Shown here: positions 14,771 through 55,230 of the stretch, one piece after another | Numbering within the stretch: the first letter of the stretch is position 1 | How the letters are laid out: each line of letters begins with the position of its first letter | From: Octopus vulgaris | Lineage: Eukaryota | Direction of reading: 5' to 3' | Length of the DNA stretch: 64,000 nucleotides | Assembly: GCA_951406725.2 (NCBI GenBank) | Contig: OX597831.1 | Coordinates: 44,206,001 to 44,270,000 of the forward strand | Program-made: the position numbers and the translations under genes | The notes under the pieces: model-generated | Told to the model about the DNA's origin: nothing | The model's database searches: none | What the model saw: only the letters and a program-made list of their open reading frames with translations

Positions 14771-14772
<2 letters not shown>

Positions 14773-15412
14773 ATATACAAAAAGGGTAAATTATAATTAA
14801 TTTAATAAATTTAATAAATTTCACCTAGTAGTTTTATCGGTATGGAAAAGACCATATTTGGTAAGGATTATATTAATTATAATAAAGGGTTAATTGCAAC
14901 AAGTTGCTCAAAACCACATACCGAAAATATTAGAAATGGCAGCCAAATAGGTCACCATTTCTCCTACTAGTAAAAAAGTCTCCACAAACAAACAGAATTT
15001 GCAACCCGTATATGGTAAAGAGAAAGAAAGTAACGAAATCCCAGCCTACTTGGATTGATTATAGACGAAATCGTTTCTGGATTAGAACCAGAGGTTCATT
15101 TCCTTGTCAATATGATATTTCCTATAAATCTAGAAATGCTAGGGAAAAAAACTCACCCACTACACCGGCTCGATCAGGCGACATCGAACGATCTAATGGT
15201 CTGCCAGCATCTCTATCTTTATATAGACAGGCGAATTCGTATCTCCCTCCAAAATTACCACGTGAGTTGCAAAAACATTATCAACGAAACGAAGTTTCGC
15301 AGATTTATTGTATGGGAGTAATAGCGTACAATATACAAAAAGGGTGAAATATAATTAATTTAATAAAATTAATAAATTTCACCTAGTAGTTTTATCGGTA
15401 TGGAAAAGACCA
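14771..15412. repeat. Element with ~85-bp terminal direct repeats (pLTR-like partial tandem) in (TA)n
   Basis: CAATATACAAAAAGGGT...GGTATGGAAAAGACCATAT at both 14770-14857 and 15328-15414. Confidence 0.85.
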
Positions 15413-15415
15413 TAT

Positions 15416-20622: not shown

Positions 20623-20677
<55 letters not shown>

Positions 20678-20682
<5 letters not shown>

Positions 20683-21345
20683 TAATAAAGGGTTAAAAGC
20701 AACAACTTGCTCAAAACCACATACCGAAAATATTAGAAATAGCAGCCAAAATTGGTCAGTATTTCCTCTACTAGTAAAAAGTCTCCACAAACAAACAGAA
20801 TTTGTAAGCTGTATATGGCAAAAAAAGGCAGAAAATAACGAAAACCCAGCCTCTGGATTAATTATAGACGACTCGTTTCTGGATTAGAACCGAAGGTTCA
20901 TTTCCTTGTCAATATAATATTTCCTATAGATCTAGAAATCCTAGGGGAAAAAACTTACCCGTTACACCAGTACGATCTGCAACATGTCGGCATAGATGTA
21001 CGAATGCTAGCAGTTCCGTTGAGCCGTCCGATGTTGCAGATCGTACTGGTGTAACGGGTAAGTTTTTTCCCTAGCATTTCTAGATCTATAGAAATATTAT
21101 ATTGACAAGGAAATGAACCTTCGATTCTAATCCAGAAACGAGTCGTCTATAATTAATCCAGAGGCTGGGTTTTCGTTATTTTCTGCCTTTTTTTGCCATA
21201 TACAGCTTACAAATTCTGTTTGTTTGTGGAGACTTTTTACTAGTAGAGGAAATACTGACCAATTTTGGCTGCTATTTCTAATATTTTCGGTATGTGGTTT
21301 TGAGCAACTTGTTGCTTTTAACCCTTTTAACCCTTTATTATAATT
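20678..21345. repeat. Long near-perfect inverted repeat (~310-bp arms, ~40-bp spacer)
   Basis: 20678-20985 is the reverse complement of ~21030-21345. Same family as 14771-15412. Confidence 0.92.
21096..21153 (+). ncRNA. Hammerhead-like motif with U3-A8 core (mirror copy 20861-20918 -, third copy ~15057-15115 -)
   Basis: AUUAUA-UUGACAA-GGA...UCC(A)-GAAA-CGAGUC-GUC-UAUAAU. Perfect 6-bp stem I; one extra A before GAAA. Confidence 0.55.
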
Positions 21346-21539
21346 ATTATAACCCTTACCAAATATGGTCTTTTCCATACCGACAAATCTACTAGGTGAA
21401 ATTGATTAATTTTATTAAATTAATTATATTCCACCCTTTATTGTATATATATATATATATATATATATACCGGAGTAAACACATAAATGTGAAACAAGGT
21501 GGAAAAAAGAGTACTCAAATACCAGGGGTAGAGTAATAT

Positions 21540-21707
21540 GCTTTATTTAAAAGCAGCAGAAAATACAACAAAACCTGTTACTCTGTGTTTTCACGTTCCC
21601 GTTCGTCGGACAGTTTTTGCTAGATTCTAGCAAAAACTGTCCGACGAACGGGAACGTGGAACTCAGATTAACAGGTTTTGTTGAATTTTCTGCTGCTTTT
21701 AAATAAA

Positions 21708-21708
<1 letters not shown>
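21540..21708. repeat. Palindromic end of a (TA)n-embedded repeat family (also 1690-1876 and 20590-20626)
   Basis: Arms meet at CTAGATTCTAG (21620-21630). The same symmetry centre occurs at ~1840-1850. Confidence 0.85.
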
Positions 21709-21765
<57 letters not shown>

Positions 21766-45190: not shown

Positions 45191-47357
45191 TTGATTGATT
45201 GATTGATTGATTGATTCTAGTTTCAGCTTATGAGCTGTGGCCATACTGGGGCACCGCCATTTGGTGTTGCTACTTGGTTTCACTTCATGGAGGCTTTCTA
45301 GCAACTGCTATTTGGTGCATGAGAGAGTTCGATGCAGCTGCCCTCATCTGCCCCTCCTGCCGTGAAGTTGGTTCATCTGGGACACCTGACAGGAAGAGAT
45401 CCAGCTTCATTTTAAAGACATTTGTATCCACCCCATGCAGGTCTCTCAGGTTCTTCGGGAGGATATTGAAGAGCTGTGGGCCTCGGAAGCCCAGGCTATC
45501 ACAGAATCTTGTCCTACATCTTGATGGCAGGTTTGGAGTCCTAGGCACCACGCAGTGGCGCCCAGTTCTGGCATTTGCGTAACTCTCGATGCCAAAGTTC
45601 AGGACACTTCCCTCCAGGATCTTCCAGATGTATATTATGGCATATCTTTCCCGCCTACGCTCCAGGGAATATAATTTTAATCTCTTGAGTCTTTCCCAGT
45701 AGCTTACATTCTGCATAGAGGCTATCTTCTTTGTGTAGCTTCGTTGGATCGCCTCAAGTTCTGTGATCAACTTGACACTGGATGGTGACCATAGCTGAGA
45801 GCAATAGTCAAAGTGGCTTAGGACAAGTGTCTTCCAGAGGACCATCATGGTTTCTTGTTCTCTTGTTCTAAAGGTTCTAAGAATCCAGCCAGCCAGCCGT
45901 CTACATTTCATTGTCAGTTTAGCAACATGTACATGAAAGGTCGCGTCATCACTCATGTGAATACCAAGGTCACGCACTGATTGTGCCTCTGGGATTGCAA
46001 TCCCTCCGGGTCCAGTGTATTCATTGGGTATTGCATTCAGTTTTGCATGCTGATAGTATAAAGCTTGAAACTTTCCAGCATTGAACTGCATGCTATTCTT
46101 TTCAGCCCACTTGTATATTTCGTCCAGCTCACATTGCAGGTGTTTAGTGTCCTCAGGGTTCTGTATTGCCTGTGAGACTTTTGTATCATCTGCATAACTT
46201 GTGATCGTGGCTCTCTGCGTGGCTGAGGGCATGTCTGAGAGGGCCATTATGAACAGTAGTGGTCCCAGAACAGTGCCCTGCGGAACACCGCTCACTATTT
46301 GTGTGTTAATGGAGGTGGCCCCATTGGCTACTACCACCTGACTTCTATCCTTCAGAAAGTCATGAAGCCATTCTCCCAGTTTTCCAACTATGTTGAGATC
46401 ACGCAGTTTGTGACATATCATTCCATGATCGACTTTATCAAAGGCCTTTGCAAAGTCGAGATATATCACTTCCACATTTGAGTGGTTGAGCAGCCGTTTC
46501 AGCACCCAGTCATAGTGTTGTAGGAGCTGAGTTAAACAGCTTCTCCCTGGTCGGAAACCATGTTGGGTGTCGGGCAGCAGGTCATTCTCTTCAAGGAAGG
46601 TGATCAGCTTCCTTCTGACTATTCGTTCCATGACCTTGCTGATGTGTGAGGTCAGAGAGATAGGTCTATAGTTCTTGGCTTCCGCTCTGCTACCTCCTTT
46701 ATGAATGGGGCATATTTTACCTTCCTTCAGTTTTCCTGGAAGTTTGCCAGCTGCAAGGAAGCTCTGAAAGAGGAACTGCAGTGGTCTTGCTAGGACTCTC
46801 TTACATGCTTTTAGGAGGATTGCCGGGAATCCATCGGGGCCAGTAGCTGAGTCTGTTTTCATTTCATCTATAGCCTTGGTTACATCGTCTTCCTTTATAT
46901 CGATGTAATCTATCGTCGCCGCCTCTGATTTTATATCTGCAGTGGTAAAAAAGTCAGTTGGATTGGTGATTTGGAGATGCCCAAGGGGTGGAGTGAAAAC
47001 ACTCTTGAATTGCTCATTCAGTATTTCACTTACCCTCATTGGTTTTCCTGTAAGTGTGCCATCCTTTTCAAGGAGTGGCCCTATTCTACAGTGCACTGTA
47101 GCTGTTTCTTTGGCATACCTGTAGAAAGCTCTGGGGTTAGATTTTATGTTTTCTATAGCCCAGGCTTCTTTGTCTGCTCTTTCTTTTTCATGGGAGAGTT
47201 GCAGACATTTTTCGATTTCCAACAGTTTTATTTTTAGGCGGGACTTTTCACTGCTTTCAATCTGTTTGTTTAGGCGATTTGAAAATTTCGTACGCCGTCT
47301 CATTAAAATTTTCCTCTCTCTGGGGATTTTGTTCTTGTGTGGGGATTTTGTTCTTGT
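45191..47357 (-). mobile_element. 5'-truncated non-LTR retrotransposon (LINE, CR1/L2 group): open RT ORF2 remnant, 3' UTR and (ATCA)n tail
   Basis: ORF 45285..47627 carries the RT motifs [51 protein letters not shown] and RDLGI. Real coding sequence starts at about 47357, where it abuts (TA)n. The (TGAT)n tract at 45191-45215 is an (ATCA)n tail on the minus strand. Clade assigned from remembered motif style. Confidence 0.93.
45285..47357 (-). CDS. Reverse transcriptase (LINE ORF2, N-terminally truncated, no APE domain visible)
   Basis: About 690 uninterrupted codons with RT motifs. The first ~90 aa of the 780-aa track ORF are microsatellite read-through. Confidence 0.85.
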
Positions 47358-48590: not shown

Positions 48591-48644
48591 TAAGTATAGG
48601 AAAAAATGGAGCTGAACGAAGATTTAACAAAATTCCTTTATTTT

Positions 48645-48730
48645 ATTTTCGACATATGTTTCGAAGTCTGCAAAGTCCCTAATTCCGATTGAATAAGGAG
48701 TCCATTTTGCAGCTTTCTCTTCAGGAAAAT
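48645..48730 (-). ncRNA. Type I hammerhead ribozyme motif with extended stem II
   Basis: AUUUUC-CUGAAGA-GAAAGCUGCAAA...UUUGCAGACUUC-GAAA-CAUAU-GUC-GAAAAU. Perfect 6-bp stem I, palindromic ACAUAUGU, GUC cleavage triplet. Confidence 0.82.
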
Positions 48731-48947
48731 CCAGGAACTTAATTCTCCAACAAAATGCACAACAATCTTCGTTCAGCTCCATTTTTTCCTATACTTAATA
48801 TATAAAACTTCAAATTTCTGCACTAAGGCACGGATTTTATGCCCCATGGTCGTAACTTTAACCGTGCTCTTTCTGTTGTGATTTTTGCTACCCATGTATC
48901 GGTTATCATTTGAATCATCCGTAGTAAGATAATTCATTTATCTACTT

Positions 48948-55107: not shown

Positions 55108-55184
55108 ATAATAATAATAATAATAATAATAATAACATCGAAAAATACCTTAAGAATGATTACCCAGGTTCGAAATTTCCCCAA

Positions 55185-55230
55185 GACACCTGATGAAGGC
55201 TGGAGGATATATCAGCCGAAACGTTGTGTT
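55185..55230 (+). ncRNA. Minimal type I hammerhead ribozyme motif
   Basis: GACAC-CUGAUGA-A-GGCUG-loop-CAGCC-GAAA-CG-UU-GUGUU. Stem I GACAC/GUGUU, stem II GGCUG/CAGCC, palindromic AACGUU stem III. Confidence 0.8.

Follow-up and report, generated by a model that had tools for sequence, protein, structure and literature searches.

A hammerhead-type motif carrying the U3-A8 pair plus a conserved extra adenine in a ~560-nt repeat family of Octopus vulgaris

A real hammerhead-type RNA motif was present in the analysed window, i.e., the whole stretch of 64,000 nucleotides of Octopus vulgaris DNA. Its core carried U and A in place of C and G at positions 3 and 8, together with one extra adenine in front of GAAA. 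Judging from the sequence and its relatives, this U3-A8 motif was probably a functional hammerhead in a retrozyme-like family. We assigned a probability of about 0.72 to the following reading: a type I hammerhead with the U3-A8 pair and a bulged A, located in a non-coding retrozyme of ~560 nt that would use Penelope-like enzymes and would cleave itself as a dimer. The U3-A8 variant itself was already known and the conserved bulged A was a small addition.

The motif and its surroundings in the window

In both structure and alignment, three helices surrounded the core and stem I was open, as in type I hammerheads (Table 1). The literal consensus CUGANGA..GAAA..UH was not matched because the core read UUGACAA and was accompanied by the extra A. 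Since U3-A8 was a published variant, this lowered the 'canonical' but not the 'hammerhead' part of the description. The original prediction had reported this core in two neighbouring mirror-image copies and a GUC triplet, all of which could be read directly in the sequence. It also placed a third copy at ~15057-15115, which did have the same core but was found at 15058-15116 on the minus strand. The perfect stem I that it described held in the two near copies, but not in the third one. Relative to the mirror arm, the 21096 copy had two private lesions, namely an A at 21124 that disrupted a distal stem II pair and the absence of one G near 21090, and both of them fell outside the core.

Table 1. 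Coordinates of the hammerhead motif, its copies and the repeat insertions (window positions unless a genomic locus is given)
Feature	Position	Strand	Remarks
Type I hammerhead	21096-21153	+	sequence, covariation, model match
Stem I, AUUAUA / UAUAAU	21096-21101 / 21148-21153	+	sequence
Core UUGACAA (U3-U4-G5-A6-C7-A8-A9)	21102-21108	+	
Swapped core pair, U3 (21102) and A8 (21107)	21102-21107	+	
Proximal stem II, GGA / UCC	21109-21111 / 21131-21133	+	continues into a 3x3 internal loop, then a distal hairpin
Extra A between C11.1 and G12	21134	+	conserved in three families
GAAA, G12-A15.1	21135-21138	+	
Helix III, short, near-palindromic	21138-21146	+	
GUC triplet	21145-21147	+	predicted cut after C17 (21147)
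Extended stem I, 3x3 internal loop	21089-21159	+	one G lost in the 21096 copy
U1.7, predicted loop-loop contact	21154	+	after the contact described in PMC2632901
Mirror-arm hammerhead	20861-20918	-	same elements; identical to commonest family sequence
Third hammerhead copy	15058-15116	-	U3-A8 and extra A kept; C.A mismatch in stem I
First insertion, head-to-head pair of 5'-truncated copies (unit of 560 nt)	20671-21448		junction ~20982-20985
Minus arm end, end motif 1	20671	-	runs into (TA)n
Plus arm end, end motif 2	21448	+	runs into (TA)n
Second insertion, ~645 nt, slightly over one unit	14771-15415	-	(TA)n-type microsatellite flanks
Tandem array of 7 units plus inverted piece	G000 C2:84.288-84.292 Mb		

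A covariance model built from C3-G8 relatives only ranked the three copies at the top of the window (37.5, 37.3, and 29.2 bits), with rough E-values of 3e-9 to 1.5e-6 compared with 0.04 for the next match in the window. A local Rfam scan of 20800-21250 gave zero hammerhead matches at E<=10, and at E<=1 there was no hammerhead among the 150 matches listed of 348 for the whole window; these 150 were microsatellite and hairpin artefacts. In addition, the published 2014 descriptor, as worded in its text, requires 'cuganga' and the U3-A8 motif did not fit it. Thus, the expectation that standard searches would miss the motif proved correct.

An inverted duplication (20687-21327; 99% complementary across 237 nt) had the two near copies as its arms and, therefore, the window contained two insertions rather than three independent copies. 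The second insertion belonged to an older subfamily with 86% identity to the tandem unit. The original prediction had taken the three copies as evidence for selection, but they were identical by descent, two of them being arms of a single inverted insertion, and so they could not show selection.

Several other repeats were located around these insertions. Another palindromic repeat (21549-21713) adjoined the first insertion and had a 94% copy at 1688-1875. At 59310-60050, there were palindromic repeats around (TA)n with ~70% identity to the 3' part of the unit (21263-21469), and they had no hammerhead. In contigs from two sequencing runs, the depth of 21261-21300 was 10-30x that of the rest, suggesting that the motif at this place was common to a far more abundant family. 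Within the ribozyme itself, the GGA-AAU/UAA-UCC internal-loop motif occurred twice, in stem I (21089-21159) and in stem II (21109-21133), and this doubling could provide an alternative pairing or a repeated binding site.

The window also had further hammerhead-like and inverted features. The motif at 27692-27742 on the plus strand (core at 27699) had the G3-C8 core GUGAACA, an extra G after A9, and a palindromic AAUAUU helix III. Its pattern produced 7,905 genome matches versus 0 for the control, with G3-C8 in 93 among the 100 listed, and a literature search for the G3-C8 core returned a laboratory variant only. A type I motif with the canonical CUGAAGA core and a long stem II (48639-48733, minus strand, core at 48724) was inside a 41-nt inverted repeat, and related pieces were present in several loci. 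At ~55184-55228 on the plus strand (core at 55190), there was a minimal hammerhead typical of the Penelope type, in which an extra A followed A9. Finally, 29722-30350 and 45192-45820 formed a 629-nt inverted pair that was 99% complementary and 14.8 kb apart.

The repeat family and conservation of the fold

The motif was carried once per unit by a protein-free repeat of ~560 nt with more than 100 genomic copies. In the tandem array, 7 head-to-tail units with 559-560 nt spacing were ~99% identical and each had the core. In ORF scans of the retrieved loci, the unit contained no long frame. When the 2.8-Gb genome was searched with an exact pattern of 19 bases that left positions 3 and 8 free, there were 109 matches versus 0 for the reversed control; among the 100 listed of these 109, there were 98 U3/A8, one C3/A8, and one A3/A8. 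After identical contexts were merged, 155 copies became 125 distinct ones, namely 120 with U3-A8, 3 with U3-G8, 1 with C3-A8, and 1 with U3-U8. The copies retrieved with ribozyme-free queries had U3-A8 in 36/37 cases and the extra A in 37/37; they came from 60 loci, the rest of which were truncated, inverted, or duplicates. Five subfamilies, with up to 7 copies each, formed a ladder on the midpoint-rooted tree and the most distant of them were ~70% identical.

No C3-G8 copy was found within the U3-A8 family and, therefore, it had no internal 3-8 covariation. Both fetched G8 copies of the family were U3-G8, and a within-family G8 pattern, which excluded subfamilies with G at 2.1, had 5 matches with 1 family member (U3-G8) among them.

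Covariation was evaluated in an alignment of 47 natural copies from three families, picked by hand, of which 44 were distinct. There, 17 of the 20 pairs changed on both sides, and 94.6% of the cells were paired versus 76.9% after shuffling (which ignored relatedness) and 28-45% in the slid controls. Pairing was observed in 97% of the cells of stem I, 100% of proximal stem II, and 96% of helix III. The 3-8 pair was U-A in 30 of the distinct copies, C-G in 14, and unpaired in 0, while the 10.3-11.3 pair was A-U in 38 and C-G in 6. The stem I pair beside the core switched from A-U to G-C among the subfamilies, the distal helices changed on both sides, and N7 varied. Helix III also varied among the subfamilies yet stayed self-complementary (ACGCGU, ACGAUCGU, ACGUACGU, ACGAAUUCGU, AUUGAUCAAU, and AUCCGGGAU), with duplex energies from -7.5 to -11.8 kcal/mol. 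The family alignment thus revealed stems changing on both sides, but the 3-8 change appeared in it as one double change, a single event on the tree, rather than as repeated covariation. The C3-G8 state was presumably ancestral, as judged from the general consensus and not from a root.

Between the five subfamilies, the core differed at 0/15 positions compared with 83/206 outside the ribozyme (p 0.0013), but the search pattern that revealed subfamilies B-D already prescribed 11 of these 15. The 4 pattern-free positions (3, 8, 16.1, and 17) were invariant, which alone was not significant at 40% background variability. The lower private variation of the core (1.8% vs 4.8%) was set aside because retrieval favours intact cores. 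Therefore, it was the compensatory changes that carried the maintenance argument, since no search pattern fixed them. They favoured the earlier claim that the motif was maintained and not decayed, as did the C3-G8 relatives in the same frame, and the family sequences backed maintenance better than the three-copy argument had done; the second half of that claim, selection for catalysis, was something that we infer.

Predicted folding gave a mixed picture. The minimum-energy fold of the monomer was not the hammerhead (-14.6 vs -11.7 kcal/mol; exact-fold probability of 0.003) and it paired the core with helix III. This predicted misfolding would fit a monomer-off design, yet it was the main result against activity. 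Folding z-scores of single copies were weak (-0.4 to -1.9), and the whole unit folded as a circle at z = -5.0 versus 40 shuffles. A tertiary contact between a loop 1 U (U1.7) and a loop 2 A is described in PMC2632901; every subfamily had U1.7 as its most frequent base, the A on the 3' side of loop 2 was invariant in our alignment, and neither position covaried. Contigs of 535 and 590 nt spanned the unit in four runs that we guessed to be RNA, a circle and a tandem array being indistinguishable there, so that these contigs were set aside as evidence for expression. Four runs labelled as other organisms had no difference at 21102, 21107, and 21134 at >=5%, which was a hint only given the uncertain kind of these contigs.

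The extra adenine and the related C3-G8 families

The original prediction mentioned the extra A before GAAA as a caveat. It turned out to be a conserved family trait rather than a sign of decay: the A was kept in 123/125 copies of the U3-A8 family, in 54/55 copies of family F (about half of its loci came from a pattern requiring this A), and in 23/23 copies of family G. The latter two families were reached by a genome search for C3-G8 plus the extra A (43 matches vs 2 for the control). Family F had CUGAUGA or CUGACGA with GGA/UCC as stem II, and C-G at 3-8 was present in 45/55 distinct copies by BLAST mapping and in 49/55 after correction of four mis-registered rows. Family G had GGC/GCC as stem II and C-G at 3-8 in 22 copies. 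In the majority sequence of none of the three families was G10.1-C11.1 directly followed by G12, an A being inserted between them. The alternative register that pairs the extra A was paired in only 47% of the cells and had no double change. This low pairing and the A-U/C-G switch at 10.3-11.3 showed that the extra A was bulged from a 3-bp stem II.

By BLAST mapping, 9 family F copies appeared as C3.A8, of which 4 were in fact CUGAAGA plus one A and had been mis-registered. Among the remaining copies, 4/5 had C7 next to the change and occupied scattered branches of the tree. These single changes (loci L116, L117, L130, and L134) were consistent with CpG-type decay after insertion. The C7/A8 association in family F was not significant (p 0.45 on uncorrected counts), and the CpG route to A8 was not established since the deeper-branching U3-A8 subfamilies had U7.

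The first profile test of homology outside the ribozyme was discarded: it was confounded by (TA)n and the reversed controls matched too. Trimmed profiles matched 5/19, 7/42, and 2/19 copies at a best E of ~0.003, with 0 matches in three directions and 0 in the controls. A common 3' motif was found in 109/125, 42/55, and 19/23 copies of the three families versus 45/2000 in the background. Thus, the common ancestry of the families rested mainly on the ribozyme and the 3' motif because the homology elsewhere was weak. As a separate observation, the canonical motif CUGAAGA at ~9438-9498 on the plus strand (core at 9444; relative in L053) had a 7-bp stem II and an extra C before GAAA, so that an insertion between 11.1 and G12 also existed in an unrelated family.

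If counted on the 3' strand, the bulged A would bring the loop-2 A to the place that it would have with a stem II of 4 bp. One could go further and propose a retrozyme lineage with a distinct domain II (3 bp, a bulged A by G12, and a 3x3 A-rich loop), in which the bulge would replace the fourth pair, keep the spacing of the loop-2 A to U1.7, be required for cleavage, and stay fixed while C3-G8 changed to U3-A8; such a lineage would offer a natural series, overlooked by Rfam, for probing core tolerance. We regard this proposal as tentative and rather doubtful.

The position of the extra A next to the general base G12 suggested another explanation, in which selection would maintain the fold for something other than catalysis, e.g., RT binding or RNA-circle shaping, and cleavage would be negligible because the A disturbs G12. 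It was published that core insertions can impair cleavage, and the GGA-AAU/UAA-UCC loop in both stems could be a protein site. However, the motif retained its catalytic nucleotides as well as the U-H site and a helix III of the dimer type, which was unexpected for binding only. Moreover, some core insertions are tolerated and an AGAAA row exists among the published Penelope hammerheads. We considered this role unlikely.

It was less likely still that the ribozyme was dead and carried passively, with U3, A8, and the extra A being decay of a master copy amplified without selection. Such a history would agree with the origin of all U3-A8 copies from one lineage, with the predicted misfolding of the monomer, with the reported spread of Naiad elements without canonical hammerheads, and with the single C3.A8 copies of family F, according to which G8 to A arises easily. 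On the other hand, it did not account for stems I, II, and III staying paired across ~70%-identical subfamilies, for the extra A common to two C3-G8 families, or for the palindromic helix III that recurred in different sequences.

Mobility and comparison with published systems

According to the favoured reading of a self-cleaving retrozyme, two palindromic helices III in transcripts of tandem units would pair to give the dimeric active form. The cut after GUC (C17) would free a unit-length RNA, which may circularise, and a Penelope-like RT/GIY-YIG protein, initiating at two internal sites, would copy this RNA into TA-rich DNA. The U3-A8 pair would represent a swap that was tolerated, became fixed a single time in a master copy, and was passed on from there. 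The copies in the window were dispersed offspring and at least two of them were already decaying.

The ends of the copies were informative with respect to the helper element. The two end motifs were ~97 nt apart, and (TA)n followed in 51+14 of 125 copies (motif 1 and motif 2, respectively); 44/125 copies ended otherwise and the first end motif was missing in 16/125. Most copies were 5'-truncated or inverted. The end motifs followed by (TA)n and the inverted, 5'-truncated copies thus matched the features of Penelope insertions, along with a retrozyme layout, and we infer that the helper was a Penelope-like enzyme. The genome contained an abundant RT-GIY-YIG family of the Penelope-like type, and its open frames were long. 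It was seen at L038/L152 (G000 C16:8.68-8.69 Mb) as a 5'-truncated ORF of a very abundant family, which had 19,888 first-look candidates and frames up to ~1,200 aa; its 3' side had no consistent type I hammerhead of the kind tested. Among the fetched loci, no autonomous partner of the unit was found.

It was very improbable that the unit was the pseudo-LTR of a yet-unfound autonomous Penelope-like element and the copies its truncated ends: most copies were 5'-truncated or inverted, retrozymes reportedly derive from pseudo-LTRs, and one copy was downstream of the Penelope ORF at L038, but a pure ORF-free tandem array existed, the unit was present only at the seed locus among 30 loci of that Penelope family (29 further loci were without it), and RT matches elsewhere among the fetched loci, most of them viewed with 1.5-kb flanks only, were limited to three places, with both extended ones separated from the unit by (TA)n.

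The novelty of U3-A8 implied by the original prediction was not upheld. The text of Perreault et al. 2011 (PMC3088659) gives the first report of natural covariation from C3-G8 to U3-A8 and states that swaps at 3-8 had already been active in vitro; the C3-G8 pair and its confirmation are also described in the text of PMC3884650. According to Cervera and De la Pena 2014 (PMC4209133), there are ~1,300 U3-A8 matches in Penelope elements of Schistosoma, and a dimeric active form with a palindromic helix III is described there for animal type I hammerheads. The bulged A had a thin precedent in print, since the text of PMC4209133 permits 'a possible extra N11' in its descriptor and has AGAAA in 1/56 rows. 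The text of Perreault et al. 2011 (PMC3088659) names insertions at 2a/2b, 6a, and 13a and none between 11.1 and G12. In our literature search of texts, no paper dealt with the ~560-nt family or with an A conserved at the 11.1/G12 junction.

The Cercyon elements of Schistosoma mansoni, as described in PMC4209133, were alike in having U3-A8, the type I layout, and a palindromic helix III, as well as in being Penelope-related animal repeats with motif pairs on opposite strands. However, their motifs are minimal, with an additional base that lies between 9 and 10.1 on the 5' side of stem II, whereas the Octopus vulgaris unit had a 6-bp stem I with a distal helix, a helix III of 3-5 bp, and the extra base on the 3' side. 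Minimal Penelope hammerheads cleave poorly in vitro. The cleavage rates of mussel or coral retrozymes are 0.1-0.8 per min.

Metazoan non-LTR retrozymes (text of PMC7229834; Li et al. bioRxiv 10.64898/2026.07.22.740005) were likewise protein-free tandem repeats, with a single type I hammerhead in each unit, dispersed monomers, a highly self-paired unit, and coexisting Penelope-like elements. The unit of ~560 nt exceeded the range of 170-400 nt given for retrozymes of invertebrates, which is descriptive and not defining; moreover, the unit differed by its variant core. Penelope-like insertions (Craig et al. 2021, PMC8557442; Frangieh et al. 2024, PMC11167929) were described with the same 5' truncation, inverted 5'-end copy, (TA)n targets, and two preferred 3' ends, and internal initiation at two sites was demonstrated for a Penelope protein. 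Unlike these elements, the unit had no ORF and its ends were ~97 nt apart compared with the 30-40-bp tail.

Since the flagged U3-A8 variant was published, its occurrence here changes little. If cleavage is confirmed, the three families would represent naturally matched ribozymes, with C3-G8 or U3-A8 beside an identical bulged A, and, as such, a simple test of core tolerance next to G12. Moreover, counts based on Rfam and CUGANGA overlook whole mobile families in animal genomes.
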